From Dehalococcoidia bacterium (GTDB lineage: Bacteria > Chloroflexota > Dehalococcoidia > UBA2979): 64,000 nucleotides of DNA. The position numbers and the translations under genes were made by a program. The DNA is taken from NCBI GenBank assembly GCA_020845735.1, contig JADLFF010000058.1:40368-104367 (forward strand). The letters are read 5' to 3'. Numbering within the stretch: position 1 is the stretch's first letter; each line of letters opens with the position of its first letter. This document shows, one piece after another, positions 17,912 through 43,277 of the stretch. The notes beneath the pieces are model-generated. The model was not told the DNA's origin, searched no databases, and worked only from the letters and a program-made list of their open reading frames with translations.

Positions 17912-18322
17912 CTAGTGGCAGGCGCGGGCCTGGCCGCTGCCATCGGCGGTCTGGAAGGACGAGCCACACGCGCACGACGAGGTGGCGTTCGGGTTGTGGA
18001 TGGTGAAGCCGGACTTCATGAGGTCCTCGACGTAGTCGATCTCGGCGCCGGCGACGTACTGCTGTGAGTCGGCGTCGACGAGGATGCGTACGCCCTCGTC
18101 CTCGATGACCGCGTCCCCGGCTTCGGTGTCACTGGCGATGGCCATGCCGTACTGGTAGCCGGAGCAGCCGCCCCCGACGACGAACACGCGCAGGGCGGCG
18201 TCGGCGACGCCGCGGGCCTCGAGGAGGGCTTTCGCCTTCACAGCGGCGCGCGGGGTAATCGAGATGATGGACACCGGCACGGGGGGTGCCGCAACGAGAG
18301 CGTTCAGGTCAAGGGTGGTCAT
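17912..18322 (-). CDS. iron-sulfur cluster insertion/assembly protein, HesB/IscA/ErpA family
   Basis: Conserved cysteines including C-terminal CACGSSF. Has an unusual 13-aa C-terminal tail. Confidence 0.8.
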   Translation of the reverse strand: MTTLDLNALVAAPPVPVSIISITPRAAVKAKALLEARGVADAALRVFVVGGGCSGYQYGMAIASDTEAGDAVIEDEGVRILVDADSQQYVAGAEIDYVEDLMKSGFTIHNPNATSSCACGSSFQTADGSGQARACH

Positions 18323-20839: not shown

Positions 20840-21580
20840 TCAGGCCAGCGGCACCATCGGCTGCGCGGGTGCGGCCGGGACCGGCGTGGGCTCGAGGCGG
20901 TAGCCCGCCAGCGAGTCGCCGGGGAGCACGCTCGAGGGGAGCGTCGTGACCCGCACGCCGAGCAGGCGCTCGAGCAAGCGGCGGTCGTGCTCGCAGCCCG
21001 CGGAGGCGGCGTGGGTGGTCGGTGGCGGCGCCTCGGTGCGTTCGGTCACGCGCAGACAGGGACAGCCGCGCCCCACGAGGTCGACCGCGCCGTCGCTCCC
21101 CGCCTCGCGGGCCGGGATGACCTCGAAGTCGATGCCTTCCTCGGCAAGGAGGGCGGCAGCGCGCCGGGCGCGGTCCTCAAGGGTGCCGCCGCGGAGTCGC
21201 GAGGCGTACTCGAGGGCGAGCCGGTCAGCCATGCGGTCGAACACCAGGCCAGCGAGCGCGCGGCCGTCGCGCCCCTCGGTCTCCCGAGTGTCGAGGGAGA
21301 GGATCTCGTCGAGCAGCCGGTGGGTGAGGCGGACGTAGTGGTGGGGGAAGAGGTCGGCGCCCGCCTCGGTGAGGAAGAACACGTGCCTCGGGCGGCCGGT
21401 GCGGCCCTTCGACTGCTGGATGGTGACGTGGCCGTCGCGCAGGAGCACATCGAGGTGGCGGCGCACGGTGGCGCCCGCGAGACCCACGTCGGCGGCGAGC
21501 TGGTCGATCGTGGCGCCGTCGGAGCGGCGGAGGATGGCGAGGATGCGCTCGCGGGTGGTTTCGACTCGGGCGTTGGTCAT
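20840..21580 (-). CDS. winged-helix transcriptional regulator with C-terminal Cys cluster, SufR-like
   Basis: N-terminal HTH (ERILAILRRSDGATIDQLAADVGLAGATVRRHLDVL) and C-terminal CPC...C cysteines. Divergent from a cysteine desulfurase gene. Confidence 0.45.
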   Translation of the reverse strand: MTNARVETTRERILAILRRSDGATIDQLAADVGLAGATVRRHLDVLLRDGHVTIQQSKGRTGRPRHVFFLTEAGADLFPHHYVRLTHRLLDEILSLDTRETEGRDGRALAGLVFDRMADRLALEYASRLRGGTLEDRARRAAALLAEEGIDFEVIPAREAGSDGAVDLVGRGCPCLRVTERTEAPPPTTHAASAGCEHDRRLLERLLGVRVTTLPSSVLPGDSLAGYRLEPTPVPAAPAQPMVPLA

Positions 21581-21725
21581 GGGCTGGCGTCGCGTTCCCT
21601 CGGCCTCACGCCGCATCACGTTCATGTCGGTGATTTCAGGTTAGGCGTGCGGCCTCGAGAGGGTCAAGGTTTTGATCGGAGAGTGAGAAAAAGTAAGGCG
21701 CCGGTTCCGAGGGCTACCCTGCCCC

Positions 21726-22145: not shown

Positions 22146-22226
22146 TCGGGTCGGACGGCGCGGCGTGACGGACGCCCTCGGCGGTGAGCGCGCATAGGAT
22201 CGTGGTGCGTGCGAGCGGAGGCGGGC

Positions 22227-23447
22227 ATGACGAGCGACGGACGGGCCCGGGTGTACCTCGATCATGCGGCAACGACGCGGCCGGACGAGCGCGTCATCGA
22301 GGCGATGCTGCCGTACCTCCGTGAGCGCTGGCACAACCCCTCGTCGATCTACATCGAGGCGCAGGCCGCGCGGCGCGCCATCGACGAGGCGCGCGAGACC
22401 GTCGCGGAGCTGCTGGGCGCGCGTCCCGAGGAGATCGTGTTCACCTCGGGGGGGTCAGAGTCCGACAACCTGGCGCTGCGCGGGGTGATGGACGCCTCGA
22501 GGGGGCGCGGGCGGCACCTCGTGACGAGCGCCGTCGAGCACCACGCCGTCCTCGACACCGCCGAGCAGCTGGGCCGCGAGGGCGCCGCGGTCACCCTCGT
22601 GGGGGTGGATGGCGAGGGACGCGTGAGCGCCGAGGCGGTGGCCGCTGCCGTGCGGGACGACACCGTCCTCGTCAGTGTCATGCACGCCAACAACGAGGTG
22701 GGGGCGATCAACGACCTCGCCTCGATCGGCTGGGCCGTCCGCGAGCGGAACCCGCGCGCGGTGGTGCACACCGACGCGGTGCAGAGCGCCGCGCACCTCG
22801 CCCTCGACGTGGACCGCCTCGGCGTGGACCTCCTCACGATGACCGCGCACAAGCTGTACGGGCCTCGAGGAGCGGGCGTGCTGTACGTGCGCACCGGGAC
22901 GCCGCTCGCGCCGCAGATCATCGGCGGTGGGCAGGAGCGCGAACGCCGCGCCGGCACCGAGAACACGGCTGCCATCGTGGGCCTCGCGACGGCCATGCGC
23001 CTCGCGCACGAGGAGCGCGAGACCGACCTCGCACGCGACCGCGCCCTGCAGGCGCGCCTCCTCGAGGAGTTGCCGCGGCGCATCCCGCTGCTCGGGATCA
23101 CCGGGCCGCGTGACGCCTCGCAGCGGCTGCCGGGCAACGTGTCGGTGGTCGTGGGGTTCGTCGAAGGGGAGTCGATCCTGCTGGCGCTGGACCTTGCGGG
23201 CGTGGCTGCCTCGAGCGGGTCGGCGTGCACCACGGGCTCCGTGGAGCCGAGCCACGTGCTCGTGGCGATGGGCGTGCCGCCCGACCTCGCGAGGGGGTCG
23301 CTGCGCCTCACGCTGGGACGTGAGAACAGCGAGGCGGACGTCGAGCGCCTGCTGAGCGTCCTGCCGCCGATCGTGGAGCGGATGCGCGCGCTCTCGCCGG
23401 TACGCGTCGAGGCGCCCCCGGAGTGGGCGCCCTGGCTCGTGAGCTGA
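22227..23447 (+). CDS. cysteine desulfurase (NifS/IscS class I)
   Basis: PLP lysine TMTAHKLYGPRG and active-site loop SSGSACT. Confidence 0.85.
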   Translation: MTSDGRARVYLDHAATTRPDERVIEAMLPYLRERWHNPSSIYIEAQAARRAIDEARETVAELLGARPEEIVFTSGGSESDNLALRGVMDASRGRGRHLVTSAVEHHAVLDTAEQLGREGAAVTLVGVDGEGRVSAEAVAAAVRDDTVLVSVMHANNEVGAINDLASIGWAVRERNPRAVVHTDAVQSAAHLALDVDRLGVDLLTMTAHKLYGPRGAGVLYVRTGTPLAPQIIGGGQERERRAGTENTAAIVGLATAMRLAHEERETDLARDRALQARLLEELPRRIPLLGITGPRDASQRLPGNVSVVVGFVEGESILLALDLAGVAASSGSACTTGSVEPSHVLVAMGVPPDLARGSLRLTLGRENSEADVERLLSVLPPIVERMRALSPVRVEAPPEWAPWLVS

Positions 23448-23553: not shown

Positions 23554-25011
23554 CTAGCGTGCAGGCGCGCAGGCGGAGGCGTCGAGGGTCTGGGACGCTG
23601 AGCCGCGGACCGTGCAGGTGATGCGGGGCTGACCAGCCTCGATGACCGTGACGGTGACCGTCACCGGGTGGTCGGGCGTCGTGTGGAGACAGGAGTCGGG
23701 CGCGGCCGAGTTGTGACTCCAGCGCACCGAGACACCGCTCTGGGTCCATGGCCCTCGAGGCGTCCCGCACGCCTCACCGGCCAGGCGCCACTCGTAGGTG
23801 AGCGCGTCGCCGTCGGGGTCGAAGGCACCGATTGCGTAGGTGGTCACCGGAGTGGCGAGGGAGACCGTGATCACCTCGACGACCGGGGGACGGTTGGTCG
23901 CGGCCGCGGGAGCGGCAGTCGCCGAACCGGTGCCGGGGTCGCCCTGGGCGCTGGCGGGGACACCGACCAGCACGCCGCCCGGCGACTCGGCCGCGGGAGT
24001 CTCCGGGCCGTCGGGTGTGAGGAACGGCAAGGTCCCGAGGAGCAGCAGCCCCACGAGGGGGACGAGCGCGAGCGCGACCAGCTGCCGCTTCGAGAAGCGG
24101 GAGGCGTGCTCGCCGGGCACGAGGATCGCCTTCTGGGACTCCTCGGCGGTGCAGGGGTGCGGATCGCCTGCGGGCCGCCACTCCTCGACCTCCTCGAGCT
24201 CGATGCGCTCGTCCCAGAAGGTGCGGAGGGACGACCAGCCCTCGTTGAGGAGGTCGCCCGCGAGGTTCCGCGCGCCGCCAGACATCCAGACCGCGAAGCC
24301 CGTCGAGAGCTGGAAGACCAGGTAGCCCCAGCCGAGGGCGCCCATGAAGCGAGCGGCACCGCTGGTGACCGCGGCTGCTCGGCTCAGCGTGGCCGCCGAG
24401 GCCGCGGGCGTCCCGGCCGTCCCGAACACGGCCGCGAAATCGCCGGTCGCCGCGGCCGCCGAGGCGGACTCGAAGGCGGCGGCGTTGGCAGCGCTGGCGC
24501 CGAGTGACTGGCTCGCGACCCCGGAGGCGACGGCCGTGCCGTCGATCGCGAAGTCGACGCTGGTGCCGCCGAAGCCGGTGAAGAACTCGTAGTAGGACTC
24601 CTGCGTCTGGTTGATGAGCCAGACCTCGTAGCGCTGGAGCTCCTCGTAGGCGTTCTCGACGAACTTCCTGACGCGGTACTTCTGCTCCATCCAGCAGACG
24701 TTGCCACGTCGCCGCGTGACGAACTCGCCGAGCGGCGTGGCCTCCTCGGAGTAGTGGTCGTACTGAGGACGGCGCTCGGCGCGATAGGTGTTGAACCACC
24801 GCGTCTCGGTCGAGTAGGTGACGGACTTGCCGAACCAGTAGAAGGGGTTGATGTACTTCAGCGTGTCGGCAGTGCCTGTCGAGGCGGACTCGGGGTCGAA
24901 CTCGCTGCCGATTTGCTTCCCGCGGTCGCCGAGCTGGGGGTAGCCGTACTGCAGACTCGGCGCGCCGGGCGCTGGAGGTGGCATGTTGGGGAGCTGGGTC
25001 GGCTTCGGCAT
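23554..25011 (-). CDS. single-pass membrane protein with an aromatic-rich cytoplasmic domain, Ala/Ser-rich linker and PKD/Ig-like extracellular domain; function unknown
   Basis: Pro-rich N-terminus, then a Y/W/F-rich segment (KYINPFYWFGKSVTY...ESYYEFFTGFGG), TM LVALALVPLVGLLLLGTLPFL, then DPDGDALTYEW in a beta-rich C-terminal domain. Start is uncertain (25011 or 24984). The upstream part of this ORF conflicts with the NuoB gene on the opposite strand. Confidence 0.45.
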   Translation of the reverse strand: MPKPTQLPNMPPPAPGAPSLQYGYPQLGDRGKQIGSEFDPESASTGTADTLKYINPFYWFGKSVTYSTETRWFNTYRAERRPQYDHYSEEATPLGEFVTRRRGNVCWMEQKYRVRKFVENAYEELQRYEVWLINQTQESYYEFFTGFGGTSVDFAIDGTAVASGVASQSLGASAANAAAFESASAAAATGDFAAVFGTAGTPAASAATLSRAAAVTSGAARFMGALGWGYLVFQLSTGFAVWMSGGARNLAGDLLNEGWSSLRTFWDERIELEEVEEWRPAGDPHPCTAEESQKAILVPGEHASRFSKRQLVALALVPLVGLLLLGTLPFLTPDGPETPAAESPGGVLVGVPASAQGDPGTGSATAAPAAATNRPPVVEVITVSLATPVTTYAIGAFDPDGDALTYEWRLAGEACGTPRGPWTQSGVSVRWSHNSAAPDSCLHTTPDHPVTVTVTVIEAGQPRITCTVRGSASQTLDASACAPAR

Positions 25012-25261
25012 GGCGGTCTCGCAGTGACTCGATGTCCCGCGGGCAATCCCGCAGGGTTCCCGGGGGCATCCCGGGGGCGCAGCGCCCTCGGAATGACAAT
25101 CGCGATGACACGACCGTACTGACGGACGGGGGCCGCGGGGATCGGGAAGCTCCCGGAATTTGCGGGCCTCGGTGGGCCCGGATAGGATGCGGGGTGCTGC
25201 GAGCGGGACGCTGACCGGAGCGTTCGACGGCCTCGATGCGGCGCGGGCAACGGACGTGGCG

Positions 25262-25981
25262 ATGACGATGACTGACCCCACTGGTGCAAGCCACTCGCAT
25301 GGCCAGCGGTCGATTCCGCTGCTGTACCAGGACCTGAACCCCTCGGCGGCGGCGCTGTCGCTGGAGGAGGAGGTCCAGAAGAACGTCCTTCTGACCTCGG
25401 TGGACGGGCTGCTGAACTGGGCGCGGTCCTCGAGCCTGTGGCCCGCGATGTTCGGGCTGGCGTGTTGCGCCATCGAGATGATCGCCACGGCGACCTCGAG
25501 GTATGACATCGCGCGGTTTGGTTCCGAGGTGTTCCGCGCGTCGCCTCGGCAGGCGGACCTGATGATCGTGGCGGGGACGGTGACCTGGAAGATGGCGCCG
25601 GCGGTGCGCCGCGTGTACCTCCAGATGGCCGAGCCGCGCTGGGTGATCTCGATGGGTGGGTGCGCGATCATGGGCGGCCCGTTCGCGTTCGGGTACTCGG
25701 TGCTGCCGGGCGTGAACCTGATTACCCCCGTGGACGTGTACGTGCCGGGGTGCCCGCCTCGACCTGAGTCGCTCCTCCAGGGGCTGATGCTGCTGCAGGA
25801 CAAGATTCGCCATCACGGCTTGAGCGGAGACCGAGGTCGCCCGGAGCCGGATGGTGATTTCTCTCGTTATCTGCCCGAGGGGGACCCGATCCGGCGCGAG
25901 CTGGAGTCGCTGTTCCCGCCGTACGCGGGCCTCGATGACCCGAACCGCCTGGTCGGGGGGCACCCGCTGGCGCGCCAGTAG
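25262..25981 (+). CDS. NuoB-like [4Fe-4S] protein (NADH-quinone oxidoreductase subunit B / hydrogenase small-subunit family), orphan
   Basis: Diagnostic [19 protein letters not shown] and VPGCPPRPE motifs, plus a ~60-aa C-terminal extension. No other nuo genes within 25 kb. Confidence 0.7.
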
Positions 25982-26129
25982 CGGGTAGGGGACGCCTCGA
26001 GGGGTGCGGGCGCGGACCTGCCGGGGCCCGGACGCGGGGCAACGGCCACATTCAGATTCCATGCATCGGTGCCGACCCTCATAGGGACGGCAGGGAATGC
26101 GTCCTCGGACGCGCCGGAGGCATGGACGC

Positions 26130-27017
26130 ATGGTCGCTGCAAGGCGAGCAGAAGAGCAGCCGTTCGACTACCCGTCCCTCGAGGAGCTTGCGGCGCGCGT
26201 CGCGACGCTGCGACCGGTCTCGGGGGTGGCTGTCCGTGTGCTCGCGCTCACCGAGGAGCAGTCGATCTCGGCGAATGAGCTTGCCGATGTGATGTCGGCG
26301 GACCAGGCGCTGTCCGCGAAGATGCTGCGGATGGCGAACTCGGCGTACTACGGGCACGCGAGGCGGATCAGCACCGTCCGAGATGCCGTGGTGCTCCTCG
26401 GCAGCCGCACGGTGCGGTCGGCGGTGCTGGTCTCGACGGTGATGAACCGAGCGAGCCACGACGGGCTCATCGAGCGGTACGACTTCTGGCGGTACTGCGT
26501 CGGGGTGGGGATCATCGCCGGGCCGGCCGCGCAGCGCGTGCGCCTGGACCGGCACCAGGCGTTCACCGCAGGCGTCCTGCACGCGATCGGACTGCTGGCG
26601 CTGGACCAGCAGGCGCCGGACCTCCTCGGTGATGCGCTTTCGCTGGCGCAGGAGGGTGGCATCTCGCTGCGCGAGGCGGAGCTGGCGCTGTTCGGGTACA
26701 CCGACTCAGACCTCGGGAGGCTGCTGGCACGGCAGTGGAACTTCCCGGACGACCTCGTGGAGGCGATCGGTGCGTGGCCGCAGCCGCCGGAGACGCAGCC
26801 GGGCACGCTCGCCGAGGTGTTGCACCACTCGCGAAACCTGGCGGCGGCGTGCGGGTTGCCGGACGGCCTCGAGCATCCGCGCGGATCGGCGGTGCCGACC
26901 GAGGTGCCGGAGATCTGGTTGCAGCCGCCGTGGTCCGCAGCGCTGGGCTCCCTCGGTGGGGTACAGGGGATCATCGAGAAGTCCGACTCCTTCGTCGAGG
27001 CGACGCTCCTCGGATAG
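26130..27017 (+). CDS. HDOD domain signalling protein
   Basis: LPVSGVAVRVLALTEEQSISANELADVMSADQALSAKMLRMANSAYYG matches HDOD. Confidence 0.65.
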   Translation: MVAARRAEEQPFDYPSLEELAARVATLRPVSGVAVRVLALTEEQSISANELADVMSADQALSAKMLRMANSAYYGHARRISTVRDAVVLLGSRTVRSAVLVSTVMNRASHDGLIERYDFWRYCVGVGIIAGPAAQRVRLDRHQAFTAGVLHAIGLLALDQQAPDLLGDALSLAQEGGISLREAELALFGYTDSDLGRLLARQWNFPDDLVEAIGAWPQPPETQPGTLAEVLHHSRNLAAACGLPDGLEHPRGSAVPTEVPEIWLQPPWSAALGSLGGVQGIIEKSDSFVEATLLG

Positions 27018-27099
27018 GGGTGCTGGCGGGGTCGCAACGCCCACCGGGACGCTACCCTTGGCCGGACCCTGCTCGATGTTTCTTTCCGAGGGCGCCACG

Positions 27100-27267
27100 A
27101 TGACGACTCCACCTGCCGAGCCAGCCGCTCCCCCGTGCCAGTGCGGACACGCGCGGGCGGCGCATAAGGACGGGACGGCGAACTGTTCACGCTGTCCGTC
27201 CTCGGGCGTGTGGGTGGACTCGATGGCCGCCTGGGTGTTCCCCTGCGACCAGTACCAGCCTCGATAG
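27100..27267 (+). CDS. possible small Cys-rich protein (55 aa), speculative
   Basis: In-frame ATG at 27100 (alternative 27076) in the HDOD/nhaA spacer. Product contains CQCGH...CSRC...C. No RBS or homology support. Confidence 0.15.
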   Translation: MTTPPAEPAAPPCQCGHARAAHKDGTANCSRCPSSGVWVDSMAAWVFPCDQYQPR

Positions 27268-27325
27268 CCGGGCCGATGGCTGACGAGGCGCGCCTGCGCG
27301 CGACCGTTCCCTCCCGCCTCACACG

Positions 27326-28684
27326 ATGAGCGCCCAGCGTCACGCGGGCGCGCCGCGGCTGAGGGCGCTCGTGCGCCCGATTGTGCAGCCGGTGCAGGAG
27401 TTCATCGCGACCGAGGCGTCGGGTGGGCTGCTGCTGATGATCGCGGCCGCCCTCGCGATCGCCTGGGCGAACTCGCCGTGGTCCGAGGCGTATCACCACC
27501 TGCTCGAGCGCCACATCGTGGTCGACGCGGGGTTCTACCGCGTCGACGAGTCGGTGCACTGGTGGGTGAACGACGTCGCGATGGTCGTGTTCTTCTTCCT
27601 GATGGGGCTGGAGATCAAGCGCGAGCTCGTGATCGGCGAGCTGAACTCGGTGCGGCGTGCGCTGGTGCCGCTGGTCGCGGCGGCCGGTGGCATGGTGATC
27701 CCCGCGCTGATCTTCCTCGCGGTGGTGCGTGACCCCGAGGCGGCCCGGGGCTGGGGCGTGCCGATCGCGACGGACATTGCGTTCGCCCTCGGGGTGGCGA
27801 CGCTGCTCGGGCCGCGGGTGCCGATCGGCCTCAAGGTGCTGCTCCTCGGCATCGCGATCTTCGACGACCTCGGGGCGGTGGCGGTGATCGCGATCTTCTA
27901 CGCGGGCGACGTCGCGTTCGAGCCGCTGCTGACGGCGGCCGCGATCCTCGGGCTCACGTATGCCATCCAGCGGGTCGGGGTGCGCGACATCCCGGTCTAC
28001 GTAGCCCTCGGCGTGATGGCGTGGATGGCGGTCGTCGAGTCAGGCGTGCACCCGACGACGGTGGGCGTGGCGATGGGACTCCTCACGCCGTGGCACTCGT
28101 GGAGCGAGCCCCGCGAGTTCGTCGGGGAGGCGCGGGAGATCTTGCGCTCGATCGAGGCGGAGTCGCAGGCCGGGAGCGAGACGACGCGGCGGCATCACCA
28201 CGCGGTGGCCGTGAGTCGCCTCCGGCGCCTGCACGACGCGAGCATGGCGCCCCTCGATCGGCTGGAGCACGCGCTGAACCCGTGGGTGGCGTACGGCATC
28301 CTGCCCCTGTTCGCGTTCGCGAATGCGGGCGTTGACCTGCGAGGGGACGCGCTCGGCCTCGCGGCCACCGCGCCGCTGACGTGGGGCGTCGCGCTGGGCC
28401 TGCTGATCGGGAAGCCGCTGGGGATTGCCCTCGGAGCTGCCGTGGCGGTGCGCCTCGGTGCGGAGTTGCCCTCGGGAGTGCGCTGGCCGGGCATCCTCGG
28501 CATGGGGATGCTGGCGGGGATCGGGTTTACCGTGGCGCTGTTCGTCGCGCAGCTGTCGTACCCGACGGCGGCACTGCTCGCCGAGGCCAAGGTCGGCATC
28601 TTCGCCGGATCGCTGGTCAGCGGCGTGCTGGGTTACGTCATCCTCAGCCGGCTGTCGACGCACAACGGCACCACCGAGGCGTAA
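27326..28684 (+). CDS. nhaA: Na+/H+ antiporter NhaA
   Basis: Full-length NhaA pattern (FFFLMGLEIKRE, IATDIAFALG, DDLGAV). Confidence 0.85.
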   Translation: MSAQRHAGAPRLRALVRPIVQPVQEFIATEASGGLLLMIAAALAIAWANSPWSEAYHHLLERHIVVDAGFYRVDESVHWWVNDVAMVVFFFLMGLEIKRELVIGELNSVRRALVPLVAAAGGMVIPALIFLAVVRDPEAARGWGVPIATDIAFALGVATLLGPRVPIGLKVLLLGIAIFDDLGAVAVIAIFYAGDVAFEPLLTAAAILGLTYAIQRVGVRDIPVYVALGVMAWMAVVESGVHPTTVGVAMGLLTPWHSWSEPREFVGEAREILRSIEAESQAGSETTRRHHHAVAVSRLRRLHDASMAPLDRLEHALNPWVAYGILPLFAFANAGVDLRGDALGLAATAPLTWGVALGLLIGKPLGIALGAAVAVRLGAELPSGVRWPGILGMGMLAGIGFTVALFVAQLSYPTAALLAEAKVGIFAGSLVSGVLGYVILSRLSTHNGTTEA

Positions 28685-37296: not shown

Positions 37297-37579
37297 GAGG
37301 CACCCCTCTGTCTATCAGTGGAGTGCTGCGTGGGGTCTCGGGGCTTCCGGGGGAGCGGAGCGCACCTCGACCCGTCACGCAGCACGGCGTGATTGGGCCG
37401 AGAGTCTCGTCCGCCCCGGGGAGGGGCCGCGCTGCCGCCCTCGATGGAGGGAGCATGTCGACAGGCGCGAGGTGGACTACTCCCCCTCAGTGCCTCGAGT
37501 GAAGGGCACGCAGGGGTGCGTGTGCCAGTGCCGAACGACCTGACGCACGGGCACGACTCGTGCACTTGCGTACTGGTGA

Positions 37580-37599
37580 TGTAGAACTTGTGTGCTACA
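37580..37599. promoter_or_regulatory. candidate SOS (LexA) box TGTAGAAC-TTGT-GTGCTACA upstream of imuB
   Basis: Imperfect Cheo-type palindrome GAAC-N4-GTGC (7/8 arms), about 100 nt upstream of the imuB start, in the divergent intergenic region. Confidence 0.3.
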
Positions 37600-37700
37600 C
37601 TCCCTCGGCTTGCGGGGGTAGTGATATGTCTCCACATCCGCCGATGTCGGCGCGGACTCGTGGGTTGCGCCCTCCTGCACCCACTTCCGAGGGCCAGGTC

Positions 37701-38909
37701 ATGCAGGCCGGGCCGCCCGAGCGCTGGTACGCGTGCCTCGCCGTGCCCTCGCTGGCCCTCGCGCAGGTGCTGGCGGAGCAGCCGGAGCTCCGAGGCAGCC
37801 CGCTGGCGATCTCGGACGAGGCGGGCGTGCGGGTGGCCGACGCCACCTCGGAGGCCACGCACCGAGGCGTGCGCGCGGGGATGACGCTCCGCGAGGCCGT
37901 GGCGCTCTGTCCTCGGCTGGCCGTGCTCGAGCCGCGCCCCGCGCGCGTGCGGCGCATCGCCGACCAGCTCGTGGAGGGTGCCGCCTCGGTGAGCCCGCTG
38001 ATCGAGGAGGCCGAGCCGGGCGTCGTGTTCGCAGACCTGCGCGGACTGGCGTCGCTCTACCCGGAGCGCGGGGCGATCGAGGCGGCGCTGCTCGCCTCGG
38101 CGCCCGGGGTGCTCGAGCCGCGCGTGGGCGTGGCGGGTGAGCGCTTCACCTCGTGGGCGGCCGCGCGCAGCGCCGAGCCCGGCACGTGGGTGCGCGTGGA
38201 GCCCGGGCAGAGCGCGGCGTTCCTCGCGAGGCGGCCCGCGGACTGGCTGCCCCTCGACGCGGAGACGCTGCGCCGGCTGCGCCTCCTCGGCATCCACACC
38301 GTCGGCGAGTTCGCGGCGCTGCCGGGCCCTGCGGTGCAGGCGCAGTTCGGGCCCCCGGGACGGCGCGCGTGGCTCGCGGCGCGCGGGCGGGATCCCGAGC
38401 CGGTGCGCCCTCGGCCGCCCGCGGTGGAGCGCGTGGTGGAGCACGTGCAGTCGCTGCCGCCGCTGATCAGCCGCGAGGCGATCCTCCTCGGTGCGCGGCA
38501 ATTGCTGAGGCGGGCGCTGCGGCAGCCTCGAGCGGTGGGGCGCTTCGTGCGGCTCGTGCGGCTCTCGGCGGTGGGCGAGGAGGGCCAGGTGTGGGAGCGC
38601 CTCCACACGCTGCGCGAGCCGGCCAACGACGAGTACCAGCTCTGGATCATCGTGCAGACCCAGTTCGAGTACGCGGAGTTGCCGGGGCCGATCGCCGAGC
38701 TGGAGCTCGAGCTGGGCGGGCTGACCGCGGAGACGGGCCGCCAGCCGGGGCTGTTCGTGGACCACATGCGGCGACGTGAGCAACTCGAGGAGATGGTGCG
38801 GCACCTCCGAGTGCGGTTCGGGCACTCGCCGGTGGCGCAGGTGGTGGAGGTGGAGCCGTGGAGTCGACTGCCGGAGCGCCGCTACGCGCTCATGGACTAC
38901 GAGCCCTAG
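37701..38909 (+). CDS. imuB: ImuB, Y-family DNA polymerase-like protein of the mutagenesis cassette
   Basis: Y-family N-terminus (WYACLAVPSLALAQVL...GMTLREA...) without catalytic acidic residues. Located directly upstream of dnaE2. ATG at 37701 follows GAGGG. Confidence 0.75.
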   Translation: MQAGPPERWYACLAVPSLALAQVLAEQPELRGSPLAISDEAGVRVADATSEATHRGVRAGMTLREAVALCPRLAVLEPRPARVRRIADQLVEGAASVSPLIEEAEPGVVFADLRGLASLYPERGAIEAALLASAPGVLEPRVGVAGERFTSWAAARSAEPGTWVRVEPGQSAAFLARRPADWLPLDAETLRRLRLLGIHTVGEFAALPGPAVQAQFGPPGRRAWLAARGRDPEPVRPRPPAVERVVEHVQSLPPLISREAILLGARQLLRRALRQPRAVGRFVRLVRLSAVGEEGQVWERLHTLREPANDEYQLWIIVQTQFEYAELPGPIAELELELGGLTAETGRQPGLFVDHMRRREQLEEMVRHLRVRFGHSPVAQVVEVEPWSRLPERRYALMDYEP

Positions 38910-39154
38910 GGCAGCCTCGGCCGGTGGAGGTGGCCCTCGAGGGGGGGCGCCCGGCGCGGGTGACCGTGGAGCGCTCGCGAGTCGCGCGCGTGTTCGAGGT
39001 GGAGGGGGTGCAGGAGGTCTGGCGCGTGGCCGAGGCGTGGTGGCGGGAGGTGCCGGTGCGGCGCACGTACTACCAGGTGGTGGTGGACGGCGGCCGCGCG
39101 CTGACGCTGTTCCAGGACGAGGAGAGTGGTCGGTGGTACGAGCAGCGGTACTGA
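38858..39154 (+). CDS. small protein (98 aa) encoded in an alternative frame overlapping the imuB 3' end; function unknown
   Basis: GTG at 38858, 7 nt after GGAGG (GGTGGTGGAGGTGGAGCC). Overlaps the last 52 nt of imuB. Trp/Tyr-rich C-terminus (WRVAEAWWREV...RWYEQRY). Confidence 0.45.
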   Translation: MESTAGAPLRAHGLRALGQPRPVEVALEGGRPARVTVERSRVARVFEVEGVQEVWRVAEAWWREVPVRRTYYQVVVDGGRALTLFQDEESGRWYEQRY

Positions 39155-39770
39155 GTGTGGACGCGCCTTCGGCGCGGAGTCCCGCCCATCACCTCCATGC
39201 GAGGGGCTACGCCCCTCGCGCTCCCGCTCGGTCAGTCGCAGCGGCCGGCGTCAGGACAGAGCGCGACTTCAGCATCGGAGTGTGGACGCGCCTTCGGCGC
39301 GACTGCCCGCCCACCCACCCCTTTTTCAGTGGGGGCTCCGCCCCCACACCCCCAGGCGTGCCGACCTCGAACTTCGCGAGCGAACGACCTTCGAGGTCGA
39401 CGCGCCTTCGCGGCGCCCCGGCCGCCCGCCCCCCATCGGGCTCGGAGTGCGGGGTGTCCACGGGCTCTGTGCAGTTCGCTACGAGACCGGAGTTGTGGAC
39501 GCGCCTCCGGCGCGGTGTCCCACTCACCCACCCCGTTCATGCGAGGGGCTGTGCTCCTCGCGCTCCCGCTCGGTCAGTTTCAGCCGCCGGGGCAAGAATG
39601 GAGCGCAGACCTCAGCATCGGGGAAGTTGTGGACACACTCCGGCGCGACTGCGCCCACCCATCCCCTTGCTCCGTGGGGGCTTCGCCACCTCCCGCAGAA
39701 GTCGACGCACGAGTCCCATCGTGACGCGACCGACCCGGCTGGCATCACACGCTGGCCACGATGAGGGTGC
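39155..39770. repeat. hairpin-dense tandemly duplicated intergenic repeat array (A-B-A'-B', ~330 bp duplication) between the imuB region and dnaE2
   Basis: 22-mer GTGTGGACGCGCCTTCGGCGCG occurs at 39155 and 39279, with variants at 39486 and 39624. Unit A 39155..39280 is ~80% identical to 39486..39620. Multiple perfect hairpins (CGCGCC-TTC-GGCGCG, GAGGGGC-TAC-GCCCCTC, GTGGGGGC-TCC-GCCCCCAC, CGACCTCGAA...TTCGAGGTCG). Confidence 0.6.
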
Positions 39771-42700
39771 GTGATGGTTGAGGGCTGGCCGCGGGTGCGG
39801 TCGAACGATCACTTCTGCGGGCCGGGCACCGAGGGCGCGCACCACCGTCACGAGCACGGGGCGACCTCGAGGGGGCGGTGGGATGCGTTCGCGGCGGAGC
39901 GCGTCGAGCTCGAGCAGCTCGTGGCGAACGACACGCCGAGGTCGATGGCGCCTCGCGATCCGCTGGCGCCGATCGGCCTCGAGGTGCTGGACGGCACGCC
40001 GTACGTCGAGCTGCACCTGCACTCGAACTACTCCCTCCTCGAGGGTGCGTCACGCATCGGCGAGCTGGTGTGGACGGCGGCCGAGCAGGGCCATCGCGCG
40101 CTCGCGCTGACGGACCACAACGGCATGTACGGGGCGATGGAGTTCGCGCGCGCGGCAAAGGAGGCGAGCCTCCGCCCGATCACCGGCCTCGAGCTGACGG
40201 TCGCCGAGGGAAAGGCGGGAGCGGAGCGCTCGCACGTGACGCTGCTGGCCGAGAACAAGCGCGGCTACTCGAACCTGTGCCGGCTCTCGAGCATCGCGTT
40301 CGGGCTCGCCGAGACGGGGGCGAAGGAGAAGGAGGCGCGCCGCCTCGATCCGTGGGTACCCCTCGAGGAGCTGGCGCGCCACGCCGAGGGGTTGATCGTG
40401 CTGACAGGCTGCCGCGAGAGCCGCCTCGCGAGACTGGTGCAGGAGGGGCGGGGCGACCGCGCCGAGGCGTGGCTGCGCCGCCTCGTGGCATGGTTCGGCG
40501 TCGAGAGCGTCTTCGTCGAGCTGCAGGACAACCTCGTCTTCGGCGACCGGCCTCGGAACCACGCGCTGGTCGCGCTCGCCGAGGTGGTCAGCGTGGGCGT
40601 GGTGGGCACGGGCAACGTGCACTACCACGAGCCCGACCGGCACCGGCTGCAGGACGTGATGACGGCGATCCGCGTGCGGAAGTCGCTGGACGACTCGCAT
40701 CGGGAGCGGCGGGCGAACGCGGAGTTCTACCTGCGCTCACCCCTCGAGCAGGCGGCGCGCTTCGAGGAGTACCACCCGGAGGCCGCGCGCAACAGCGTCC
40801 GCATCGCGCGCCGGTGCGCGTTCGACCTGACCGAGGACCTGGGCTACCGGCTGCCCGAGCCGGCCTCGGCGAACGGGCGCACGGCAATCGAGGAGCTGGC
40901 GGTGGTGTGCCGTGCGCGCCTCGAGGGGCGGTACGCGGGGAGGCGGCGGCGCTACCTCGATGCCGCGCGCGAGCGGCTGGAACACGAGCTGGGGCTGATC
41001 GAGCGCCACCGCCTCGCGGGGTTCTTCCTCATCTACCACCAGATCTTCAACCTCGCGAGAGAAGTGGCGCGCGAGGTGCGCGGCGAGGGCAGCGCTCGGC
41101 AGTTCGCGAACCTGCCGCCGGGTCGCGGGCGCGGATCCTCGGTCGCCTCGATCGTCTGTTACCTGATCGGGCTGTCGCACATCGACCCGATCGCGAACCG
41201 GCTGACGATCGGGCGCTTCCTCAACGAGGAGATGCGCACCTTCCCGGACATCGACCTCGACTTTGCGCGCGACATCCGGCGGGTCCTCATCGAGCGGGTC
41301 TACGAGGTGTGGGGCAAGGAGCACGCGGCGCTCGTCGCGATCTTCCCCACGTACCGCCTCAAGAGCGCGCTGCGTGACATCGGCAAGGCGCTGGGGCTGC
41401 CGGCCGCGGAGATCGACCGGCTGGCGAAGCGCTCGAGTCCGCACGACGGCATCGAGCAGATCCCGGAGGAGCTGGCGCGCCATCCCGAGTACGCCGACCG
41501 CCTCGAGGCGCGGGCGTGGCGCGACCTCGCGGAGCTGTCGATCCAGCTCGCGGGGTTCCCGCGGCACATGTCGCAGCACGTGGGCGGGATGGTGATCTCC
41601 TCGGAGCCGCTCATCGACTACGTGCCGTGCCAGCCGGCGGCGTGGCCGAATCGCTACCTGTGCCACTGGGACAAGGACAGCATCGACGACGCGCGGATGG
41701 TGAAGATCGACTTCCTCGGACTGGGGATGCTCTCGGTCGTCGAGGAGACGATGGAGCTGATCGTCGAGGAGGGCCACACGCAGGTCGACCTCTCGACGAT
41801 CGCGTTCGACGACGCAGCGGTGTACGACGACATCTGCCGAGGCGACACGGTGGGGGTGTTCCAGATCGAGTCGCGGGCGCAGATCGCGATGCTGCCACGG
41901 ACGCAGCCGCGCAGCCTCGAGGACCTGACCGTGCAGGTCTCGATCGTGCGGCCGGGGCCGATTGTCGGTGGGGCGGTGAACCCGTACGTGCGGGAGCGCG
42001 AGAAGCAGCGCCGCCTCGGCGCCGCGTACCGGCCTCCCGAGGTGCATGCGTGTGTGAACGAGGTGCTCGACGAGACCCTCGGCGTGGTGCTGTTCCAGGA
42101 GCAGGTCGTCGAGGTAGCTCGGCGGATGGGAGGCTTCACGGCTGGGGAGGCGGAGCAGTTCCGCCGCGCGATGAGTCGCAAGCGCTCACTGGAGGTGATG
42201 CAGCGCTACGAGGAGCACTTCATGGCGGGCGCCCTCGAGCGGGGAGTGGAGCCCGCGATGGCGGAGCGGATGTTCAAGAACCTGCTGGGGTTCGCGGAGT
42301 TCGGCTTCCCGAAGAGCCACGGGGCGGCGTTCGGTCTGCTCGCGTACCAGACGACGTGGCTCAAGCGGTACTACCCGGCGCCGTTCTTCTGCGCGCTGTT
42401 CAACAACCAGCCGATGGGCTTCTACCCGCCGCACGTGCTGACGAACGACGCGAAACGCCACGACCTGGAGGTGCGCCGGCCCGACCTCAACCTGAGCGAC
42501 GCGCGCTGCACGGTGGAGCCCTCGACGCTGGCGCGCGGCGCGATCCGGGTGGGGCTGGGCTACGTGCGCAGCGTGGGCGAGGTGGCCGGCGCGCACATCG
42601 AGGCGGAGCGCCGTCGCGAGGGGCCGTACACGTCGCTGTTCAACCTCGTGCAGCGCACGGGGATCAGCCGGCAGGCGGTGGAAGCCCTCGTGCGGGTGGG

Positions 42701-43277
42701 GGCGTGCGACGACTTCGGGCTCAATCGCCGCGAGCTGCTCTGGCAGCTGGGGCTGTTCTGGGGCGGGATGCAGCAGGCGGCGCTGAGCGTGCCTCGAGAG
42801 CGGCAGTTGCGCCTCCCACTGACGACGGAGCAGGACGAGGTGTCACTCGTCGACTTCGACGCCTACCAGCGGATGACGGCGGACTACGAGCTGCTGTCGC
42901 TCTCGCCGGACAGCCACCCGATGCAGTTCATGCGGGGCGCCCTCGGGGAGGGCGTGGCCTCGAGTCGGCACCTGCGCGCGATCCCCGGCGGGAGCCAGGT
43001 GGACGTCGCGGGCCTGGTGGTGTGCCGCCAGCGGCCGATGACGGCGAAGGGGATCATCTTCCTGCTGCTGGAGGACGAGTTCGGGATGATCAACGTGCTG
43101 GTGAGCAAGGAGCTCTCCGAGCGCTTCCGCGACCACATCCGGACGGCGCCGTTCGTGCGGGTGCGCGGGGTCCTCGAGGAGCGGATGGGGGAGCAGCGGA
43201 CGCTGGTGGCCTCGCAGCTCTGGGAACTCGTCCCCTCCCAGATGTTCCGCACGCCCCACGGCAAGTCGTGGGGCTAG
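39771..43277 (+). CDS. dnaE2: error-prone DNA polymerase DnaE2 (ImuC)
   Basis: PHP domain start YVELHLHSNYSLLEGAS, pol III alpha core GFFLIYHQI and FPDIDLDF, and a C-terminal OB-fold region. About 70-aa N-terminal leader as in actinobacterial DnaE2. Confidence 0.9.
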   Translation: MMVEGWPRVRSNDHFCGPGTEGAHHRHEHGATSRGRWDAFAAERVELEQLVANDTPRSMAPRDPLAPIGLEVLDGTPYVELHLHSNYSLLEGASRIGELVWTAAEQGHRALALTDHNGMYGAMEFARAAKEASLRPITGLELTVAEGKAGAERSHVTLLAENKRGYSNLCRLSSIAFGLAETGAKEKEARRLDPWVPLEELARHAEGLIVLTGCRESRLARLVQEGRGDRAEAWLRRLVAWFGVESVFVELQDNLVFGDRPRNHALVALAEVVSVGVVGTGNVHYHEPDRHRLQDVMTAIRVRKSLDDSHRERRANAEFYLRSPLEQAARFEEYHPEAARNSVRIARRCAFDLTEDLGYRLPEPASANGRTAIEELAVVCRARLEGRYAGRRRRYLDAARERLEHELGLIERHRLAGFFLIYHQIFNLAREVAREVRGEGSARQFANLPPGRGRGSSVASIVCYLIGLSHIDPIANRLTIGRFLNEEMRTFPDIDLDFARDIRRVLIERVYEVWGKEHAALVAIFPTYRLKSALRDIGKALGLPAAEIDRLAKRSSPHDGIEQIPEELARHPEYADRLEARAWRDLAELSIQLAGFPRHMSQHVGGMVISSEPLIDYVPCQPAAWPNRYLCHWDKDSIDDARMVKIDFLGLGMLSVVEETMELIVEEGHTQVDLSTIAFDDAAVYDDICRGDTVGVFQIESRAQIAMLPRTQPRSLEDLTVQVSIVRPGPIVGGAVNPYVREREKQRRLGAAYRPPEVHACVNEVLDETLGVVLFQEQVVEVARRMGGFTAGEAEQFRRAMSRKRSLEVMQRYEEHFMAGALERGVEPAMAERMFKNLLGFAEFGFPKSHGAAFGLLAYQTTWLKRYYPAPFFCALFNNQPMGFYPPHVLTNDAKRHDLEVRRPDLNLSDARCTVEPSTLARGAIRVGLGYVRSVGEVAGAHIEAERRREGPYTSLFNLVQRTGISRQAVEALVRVGACDDFGLNRRELLWQLGLFWGGMQQAALSVPRERQLRLPLTTEQDEVSLVDFDAYQRMTADYELLSLSPDSHPMQFMRGALGEGVASSRHLRAIPGGSQVDVAGLVVCRQRPMTAKGIIFLLLEDEFGMINVLVSKELSERFRDHIRTAPFVRVRGVLEERMGEQRTLVASQLWELVPSQMFRTPHGKSWG

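Follow-up and report, generated by a model that had tools for sequence, protein, structure and literature searches.

Complex I is normally viewed as one fixed set of core subunits that are encoded together. Among these is the 20-kDa subunit that carries cluster N2, known as NuoB, Nqo6, or PSST (NDUFS7). In the Chloroflexota, Chloroflexus and Roseiflexus have duplicated nuo genes with a NuoB 1/NuoB 2 naming, and the second copy lies in a second nuo set. Complex I-like enzymes of 11 subunits that lack NuoEFG have also been described (PMC3144371, PMC6005880, and PMC11238625, in their accessible portions), and PMC4758237 names the tandem CC ligand pair among the traits of complex I and Fpo. Here, we describe a NuoB-family gene that stands alone in 64,000 nucleotides of DNA from a Dehalococcoidia bacterium (GenBank assembly GCA_020845735.1, contig JADLFF010000058.1, positions 40,368 to 104,367 of the forward strand). 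We refer to this whole stretch, which has a GC content of ~70%, as the window. The gene belongs to a clade of tailed NuoB proteins encoded outside nuo operons, for which we coined the name NuoBext. We read NuoBext as a functional out-of-operon NuoB paralogue, most likely an alternative subunit for the Q-module of complex I; we place the probability of this reading at roughly 0.6. In what follows, loci and contigs carry L numbers and database proteins carry P numbers.

NuoBext as a tailed member of the NuoB family

NuoBext is a full NuoB/Nqo6/PSST homologue with the four N2 cysteines. The preliminary description of this locus, made from the DNA letters without database searches, had already credited it with the full NuoB motif set, and profile searches bear this out. 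The open reading frame (ORF) exceeds the cut-offs of Pfam PF01058 (95 bits vs 27), NCBIfam TIGR01957 (nuoB_fam, 232.9 bits vs 142.7), and PRK06411 (241.8 bits vs 116); it contains a VPGCPPRPE segment; and its GC content at third codon positions (GC3) is 0.87. The ligands C68, C69, C134, and C164, including the tandem CC, are invariant across 86 homologues and also in an alignment of 17 sequences. The ORF falls under all species-level equivalog cut-offs, the top score being 258.7 vs 312 for PRK14819. This 264-aa profile describes NuoB with a long C-terminus, but NuoBext matches positions 12-163 only, so its tail differs from the PRK14819 tail. The ATG at 25262 agrees with the start of the nearest database homologue, P0001 (MTMIDPTGS...), and the exact start is less certain given the poor conservation of the first ~33 residues.

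When compared with solved structures, NuoBext scores best with Thermus thermophilus Nqo6 (203 bits), followed by Escherichia coli NuoB and mitochondrial PSST, whereas hydrogenase small subunits reach 80-101 bits only. Identity as a group 4 [NiFe]-hydrogenase small subunit is not supported, given this difference in scores and the absence of any hydrogenase gene from the window. We called 51 GC3-supported ORFs in the window and searched 48 of these, together with a long antisense ORF (23554-25803), against Pfam; none of these 49 ORFs is a further complex I or hydrogenase gene. The earlier statement that no such genes lie nearby thus holds for the whole 64 kb.

The C-terminal tail extends about 45-55 residues past the typical NuoB end. 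The preliminary description had noted some 60 extra residues and had considered that they might stem from miscalled gene ends; the extension is slightly shorter, but it is real, is under purifying selection (pairwise ratio of nonsynonymous to synonymous substitution rates, dN/dS, 0.14 in the tail and 0.10 in the core), and is no stop-calling artefact, since it is conserved in every close homologue. In the 17-sequence alignment, the invariant tail residues are R193, P196, G198, F200, L204, P205, D208, P209, R211, E213-F218, and P220, and the invariant set is smaller in the 86-sequence alignment. A tblastn search with the tail against 80 NuoB loci, in nuo operons or other contexts and including Herpetosiphon (L078) and Chloroflexia metagenome-assembled genomes (MAGs), gave no match. 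Among 1.84 billion representative proteins, the tail has 20 matches only. Most of these are probably C-terminal fragments because they are only 54-115 residues long; one match of 248 residues bears the tail close to its C-terminus, and none of the 20 has the tail fused to another domain. We consider that the tail probably acts as a docking element onto partner subunits.

NuoBext is not confined to this one contig. A search of 5.8 billion proteins returned >120 NuoBext clusters at 70-93% identity, and those with annotation are all labelled NuoB and come from "Chloroflexi" or "Dehalococcoidia bacterium" MAGs. When only the tail was used as the seed, a scan of metagenomes found 350 loci. For comparison of gene context, we gathered 89 loci from a genome scan (at least three loci), the tail-seeded metagenome scan, and exact look-ups. 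In a neighbour-joining (NJ) tree of 161 NuoB cores, all 77 NuoBext sequences are monophyletic and sister to the NuoBs of type I Dehalococcoidia operons (L008-L015), with the type II operon NuoBs (L153, L167, L168) on a separate, longer branch. NuoBext is a monophyletic paralogue clade specific to Dehalococcoidia-class Chloroflexota. The distinct orphan clade that the preliminary description had raised as a question for this gene is therefore recovered, both by its 77/77 monophyly and by the gene's position, as nuoA or nuoC is adjacent to NuoBext in none of the 89 loci.

The core also retains the constraint expected of a working NuoB. From root to tip, NuoBext sequences lie 0.400 away on average, against 0.395 in the sister clade of operon NuoBs, which indicates no rate acceleration in NuoBext. 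Across 84 non-NuoBext NuoBs from many phyla, 63 columns are at least 90% conserved, and at 59 of these, 90% or more of the NuoBext proteins have the identical residue. Among the retained columns is the NWxRxxSLWP segment ahead of the CC pair; in complex I structures, this segment lies at the interface of the membrane arm and the quinone channel.

Coexistence with nuo operons and other nuo paralogues

In relatives, NuoBext is an additional copy beside an operon nuoB. Contig L153 carries nuoA-B-C-D and NuoBext 7.5 kb apart. In the closely related MAG GCA_041690175.1, contig 4 (L086) has a typical NuoBext locus, including the gene for an HDOD-domain protein that also follows NuoBext in the window; contig 1 (L174) has all 11 genes of a nuoA-B-C-D-H-I-J-K-L-M-N operon, among them a 217-aa nuoB; and contig 8 (L173) has a NuoD paralogue that stands alone, away from any other nuo gene. 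The operon and stand-alone NuoD contigs were reached through NuoD matches P0286 and P0293, and the GC contents of the three contigs are 0.69-0.71. The operon NuoB of this MAG is 57% identical to its own NuoBext and 54% identical to the NuoBext of the window. nuoB is present in every 11-gene operon inspected. The possibility, raised in the preliminary description, that the genes of a single nuo set are simply split and that this is the only nuoB thus fails in these relatives. Around the operon nuoBs P0221 and P0186, we found the operon only and no NuoBext within 10 kb, so the close spacing in L153 is not general.

We also observed that Dehalococcoidia have two distinct types of 11-gene nuo operon (L008-L015 vs L153, L167-L171, and L174), between which NuoB, NuoD, and NuoI differ by ~40-55%. 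NuoBext and the NuoI-like paralogue described below resemble the type I operon proteins, and the stand-alone NuoD resembles type II. Separately, a pair of MaoC genes in the window was considered as the scar of a deleted nuo operon and rejected, as there is no orthology.

NuoBext is not the only nuo paralogue encoded apart from an operon. The stand-alone NuoD proteins share 75-80% identity with operon NuoD, exceed the NuoD equivalog PRK06075 (456 vs 360), and coexist with a full nuo operon, in one MAG also with NuoBext. Their gene lies 1.7 kb upstream of the nuo operon in L167 and L168; in L112 and L114, it separates the regulator from NifS-NuoBext. A more distant NuoBext subgroup (L152, L155-L161) has a gene for a NuoI-like protein immediately after NuoBext. 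In L158 and L160, NuoBext, the NuoI-like gene, and a NuoG/Fdh-like gene form a three-gene unit, and in L154, the NuoI-like/NuoG-like pair lies 4 kb downstream of NuoBext. The NuoI-like protein of L158 is below the TIGR01971 cut-off (101.7 vs 113), and the NuoI-like protein retains, at its N-terminus, the ...TLKH...PxTVQFPEE motif that is usual in membrane-docked NuoI. The NuoG/Fdh-like protein of L158 has 4Fe-4S domains and a molybdopterin domain besides an N-terminal 2Fe-2S domain. No nuoE or nuoF is adjacent to the three-gene unit in the inspected loci. The NuoI/NuoG-linked subgroup consists largely of metagenome contigs from the Joint Genome Institute (JGI).

Iron-sulfur assembly and stress genes around NuoBext

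The features of the window and of selected relatives are listed in Table 1.

Table 1. Coordinates of NuoBext, its parts, and associated genes (positions in the window unless a contig is named)
Feature	Position	Strand	Remarks
ErpA/IscA-type Fe-S cluster insertion protein	17912..18322	-	PF01521
ArsR/SufR-like winged-helix regulator	20840..21625	-	Pfam HTH_24, HTH_20, HTH_5; divergent from NifS
NifS/IscS-type cysteine desulfurase	22209..23447	+	PF00266 (Aminotran_5), 259 bits vs 21.5
485-aa ORF	23554..25011	-	No Pfam match; antisense, between NifS and NuoBext; window lineage only
NuoBext coding sequence, 239 aa + stop	25262..25981	+	NuoB/Nqo6/PSST-family [4Fe-4S] (N2-type) subunit paralogue
NuoBext variable N-terminal leader, aa 1-33	25262..25360	+	Poor alignment; length varies among homologues
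NuoBext conserved NuoB core, aa 34-186	25361..25819	+	Invariant Cys, retained columns, dN/dS 0.10
NuoBext cluster ligands	C68 + C69, 25463-25468; C134, 25661-25663; C164, 25751-25753	+	
NuoBext clade-specific C-terminal tail, aa 187-239	25820..25978	+	Conserved 28-residue motif at 25838-25921
HDOD-domain protein, 306 aa	26097..27017	+	PF08668, 166.9 bits vs 22.9
Stand-alone NuoD paralogues, 379-382 aa	L173, 6264-7412; L167, 7765-8913; L112, 4445-5593		
NuoBext/NuoI-like/NuoG-like region	L158, 9470-13357; L160, 1659-5558; L154, 4915-8056		
~305-aa ORF in the NuoBext-sodN gap	L110, 10206-11132; L112, 8255-9166		By eye lipoprotein-like, internal duplication

In the dominant gene order among relatives, PspC, EVE, ErpA/IscA, and a SufR-like regulator lie on one strand, and NifS, NuoBext, SodN, SodX, HDOD, and GroEL are divergent from them. 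Counting loci with enough flanking DNA, NifS is immediately upstream of NuoBext in 30/37, an iron-sulfur (Fe-S) assembly gene lies within 8 kb in 20/22, and SodN and GroEL are downstream in 27/44 and 20/29, respectively. The block genes are kept together in a rearranged order in L102, L104, L106, and L124, and in L007, NuoBext follows sufB-C-D-S-U after a gap of 41 bp.

The window has several members of this block. Its NifS scores 476.2 bits with TIGR03402, below the equivalog cut-off of 530.75. ErpA/IscA, syntenic in relatives, scores 124 bits with TIGR00049 and 121.8 with the ErpA profile PRK13623 (cut-off 117). The sole NCBIfam match of the regulator is SufR (TIGR02702, SufR_cyano) at 51.6 bits vs a cut-off of 178.8, so we call it SufR-like only; its position is conserved in relatives. 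Because NuoBext lies directly behind NifS in most relatives, we consider it probable that NuoBext and Fe-S assembly genes are expressed jointly. More broadly, placement in a block of SufR-like, NifS, ErpA, Ni-superoxide dismutase (Ni-SOD), and GroEL genes suggests that NuoBext is co-expressed with functions in Fe-S assembly and oxidative stress, the alternative being inherited synteny.

A candidate operator, the AT-rich inverted repeat GTTTYTC-N(4-14)-GARAAAC, is found between the regulator and NifS in 9/26 loci under strict criteria. We noted such repeats in L086, L097, L098, L110, L115, L130, and L147, and an imperfect copy, GGTTTTGATCGGAGAGTGAGAAAAAG, at ~21650-21700 in the window. Upstream of NuoBext itself, a GTTTYTC/GARAAAC-type repeat was looked for in the window and not found. 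Consensus promoter and terminator scans of 24800-27400 returned nothing, and these consensus sequences are uninformative for a 70% GC Chloroflexota genome.

Other features differ between loci. By eye, the 485-aa ORF has a single hydrophobic stretch and a PKD/Big-like C-terminus; L087 has a 76% tblastn match to it over ~75 residues, up to the contig end, and L175 has a small TfoX_N gene between NifS and NuoBext in its place. sodN (Ni-SOD) and sodX (maturation peptidase) lie at 11027-12224 in L086, occur in ~27 other loci, and are absent from this locus in the window lineage. Several relatives have a ~305-aa ORF in a 1.3-kb gap between NuoBext and sodN, and the L112 copy has no Pfam match. Elsewhere in the window and unrelated to NuoBext, an IMS (impB/mucB/samB, Y-family polymerase) ORF precedes an ORF for a DnaE-type polymerase III alpha subunit with PHP, finger, HhH, and OB domains (37560-43277, + strand); this pair resembles an ImuB-DnaE2-type mutagenesis cassette.

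The gene downstream of NuoBext encodes the HDOD-domain protein. It begins 115 bp after NuoBext on the same strand, and the consensus scan gave no terminator-like site between the two. The profile match spans positions 3-191 of 196 (189 positions), and the protein is single-domain, with no receiver, GGDEF, or EAL partner. The preliminary description raised the question of conserved HDOD neighbours. HDOD does recur, within 5 kb downstream of NuoBext in 12/33 loci, but it is directly adjacent in only 2/51. The adjacency is seen only in the window sublineage (the window, L087, L139, and L175), and NifS is the more constant neighbour. Elsewhere, sodN-sodX usually separate NuoBext from HDOD, and HDOD is missing from L001, L002, L004, L007, and the NuoI/NuoG-type loci. 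HDOD abuts NuoBext in the window sublineage because sodN-sodX are missing there (L087, L175); the adjacency in the window is an outcome of local gene loss. HDOD forms part of the block and is linked to NuoBext by position only; a specific NuoBext-HDOD pair is not supported.

Interpretation and comparison with known systems

Complex I-type work is favoured for NuoBext because 59 of 63 conserved columns are kept, the evolutionary rate is unchanged, and the gene is clustered with NuoD, NuoI, and NuoG paralogues. In such a role, NuoBext would bind an N2-type [4Fe-4S] cluster through C68, C69, C134, and C164, dock at the membrane interface onto a partner of the 49-kDa type, and pass electrons to quinone. 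The partner would be either the operon NuoD or a stand-alone NuoD paralogue such as that of GCA_041690175.1, and the tail could serve as a strap that holds NuoBext onto its partner subunits.

Several points weigh against this reading. Physical membership of NuoBext in complex I is something that we infer from sequence and gene context, and in the 22 fully flanked loci, membrane-arm nuo genes are absent up to a distance of 10 kb from NuoBext. An altered function could be reflected in three residues specific to the clade: W109, S170, and N152, which replaces a D found in 92% of operon NuoBs. Coexistence with an operon nuoB is extrapolated to the window organism, represented by 64 kb of DNA, from relatives with 81-86% core identity, and the MAG evidence hinges on correct binning. 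The tree was built by plain NJ from ~150 columns; the loci share ancestry, so that the synteny counts are not independent events; and an AlphaFold2 monomer model from the 86-sequence family alignment was too poor to place the tail (mean predicted local distance difference test score, pLDDT, 52.6) and was not used.

A different assembly of the same parts would be a separate soluble or peripheral oxidoreductase off the membrane arm, made of NuoBext and the stand-alone NuoD, with or without the NuoI-like and NuoG-like proteins, and derived from hydrogenase/complex I modules. All of these paralogues are indeed encoded apart from membrane-arm genes, the three-gene unit of L158 and L160 has no adjacent nuoH, nuoA, or nuoE/F, and NuoBext and stand-alone NuoD occur together in one MAG. 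A separate enzyme is nonetheless unlikely given the retention of NWxRxxSLWP and nearly all universal NuoB columns, the membrane-docked-NuoI-type motif of the NuoI-like protein, and the 75-80% identity of stand-alone NuoD to operon NuoD. We also judge it improbable, to a similar degree, that NuoBext is the sole nuoB of its genome, an ordinary subunit oddly placed among dispersed nuo genes with an operon elsewhere that lacks nuoB. A fully canonical core and a position sister to type I operon NuoBs are what one expects of a relocated orthologue, complete chromosomes with type I operons have no NuoBext match among the genome-scan matches listed, and the source-organism DNA examined is the 64-kb window; yet the related MAG with a matching locus (GCA_041690175.1) holds a full operon with nuoB, L153 bears nuoA-B-C-D as well as NuoBext, and all inspected 11-gene operons include nuoB.

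Roles outside electron transfer fare less well. NuoBext could be a carrier or reservoir of Fe-S clusters, or a maturation client of the NifS/ErpA/SUF machinery, as might be suggested by NifS next door (30/37), an Fe-S gene within 8 kb (20/22), the position behind sufBCDSU in L007, and the SufR-like neighbouring regulator. This synteny may be inherited and non-functional, however, and a carrier would need the cluster ligands alone, which leaves the 59/63 retention and the links to NuoD, NuoI, and NuoG unexplained; we regard this role as quite improbable. The preliminary description suggested a possible moonlighting or sensor-type NuoB outside any respiratory complex, one that would sense redox or Fe-S state and signal through the downstream HDOD protein. 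The short same-strand spacing with no terminator-like site and the recurrence of HDOD in the block of relatives fit such a pair, but the genes are rarely adjacent (2/51), are within 5 kb in 12/33 loci, and usually have sodN-sodX between them, and NuoBext also occurs without HDOD (L001, L002, L004, L007, and the NuoI/NuoG-type loci). Moreover, NuoBext has no fused signalling domain, and its conservation pattern is that of a complex subunit: the retained columns, unchanged root-to-tip distance, and linkage to NuoI, NuoG, and NuoD run against a sensor, which we consider very improbable. Both the sensing and carrier roles are disfavoured because a protein that only holds a cluster should not retain almost every position conserved across NuoBs while evolving no faster, nor should its gene turn up repeatedly beside paralogues of NuoD, NuoI, and NuoG.

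If NuoBext is an alternative Q-module subunit, a wider proposal can be entertained, which we offer as tentative and more doubtful than the subunit role itself. NuoBext and the stand-alone NuoD, in some lineages with the NuoI-like and NuoG-like proteins, may form an alternative Q-module/peripheral-arm set that the 11-subunit complex I of Dehalococcoidia can exchange. Its genes would be expressed with an Fe-S repair/oxidative-stress regulon (SufR-like, NifS, ErpA, Ni-SOD, GroEL), and under oxidative or iron stress, the cell could swap the N2/quinone-site subunits or alter the wire through which electrons enter, with the tail as an isoform-specific docking element. Interchangeable isoforms of this kind would be a new way to tune or repair the quinone-reducing heart of complex I, and could bear on the electron donor of the enigmatic 11-subunit enzymes.

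A widespread group of environmental bacteria keeps a second, tailed N2-subunit gene under strong selection beside genes for Fe-S assembly and superoxide defence, and the group also has extra NuoD copies and sometimes NuoI and NuoG-like proteins. What is new here is the recognition of a tailed, out-of-operon NuoB paralogue clade; the NuoB family itself is known. Databases already carry NuoBext generically as NuoB, and we found no account of it as a distinct entity. Because automatic annotation gives each copy the name "NuoB," the distinction is lost in metabolic reconstructions from these MAGs. When we searched the literature for nuoB genes of Chloroflexota that stand alone or are paralogous, no relevant account came up, and neither full-text literature searches nor a term search in PMC4758237 found stand-alone NuoB or NuoD paralogues of the 11-subunit enzymes.

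As in the 11-subunit enzymes, so far as the accessible portions of PMC3144371, PMC6005880, and PMC11238625 describe them, the operons of relatives have the order nuoA-B-C-D-H-I-J-K-L-M-N, and one group of the NuoBs encoded there is the sister of NuoBext; unlike the NuoB of those enzymes, NuoBext is an extra copy outside the operon. With the small subunits of group 4 [NiFe] hydrogenases (MbhJ, HycG/FHL subunit 7, EchC), NuoBext shares the PF01058 fold family and a proximal [4Fe-4S] cluster, but its similarity to them is weaker (80-101 bits vs 203 for Nqo6), and there is no hydrogenase large subunit nearby. As in Chloroflexus and Roseiflexus, there is more than one nuoB per genome in these Chloroflexota, though NuoBext is solitary, lies in an Fe-S assembly/stress locus, and is tailed. 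NuoBext is most like NuoB/Nqo6/PSST, being above the family cut-off with a tandem CC and two further Cys, and its core shares 59-62% identity with the family members from T. thermophilus, E. coli, and mitochondria. It differs from canonical NuoB in that it is encoded alone, has a clade tail of ~50 residues and the residues W109, N152, and S170, and coexists with an operon NuoB to which it is only 54-57% identical.

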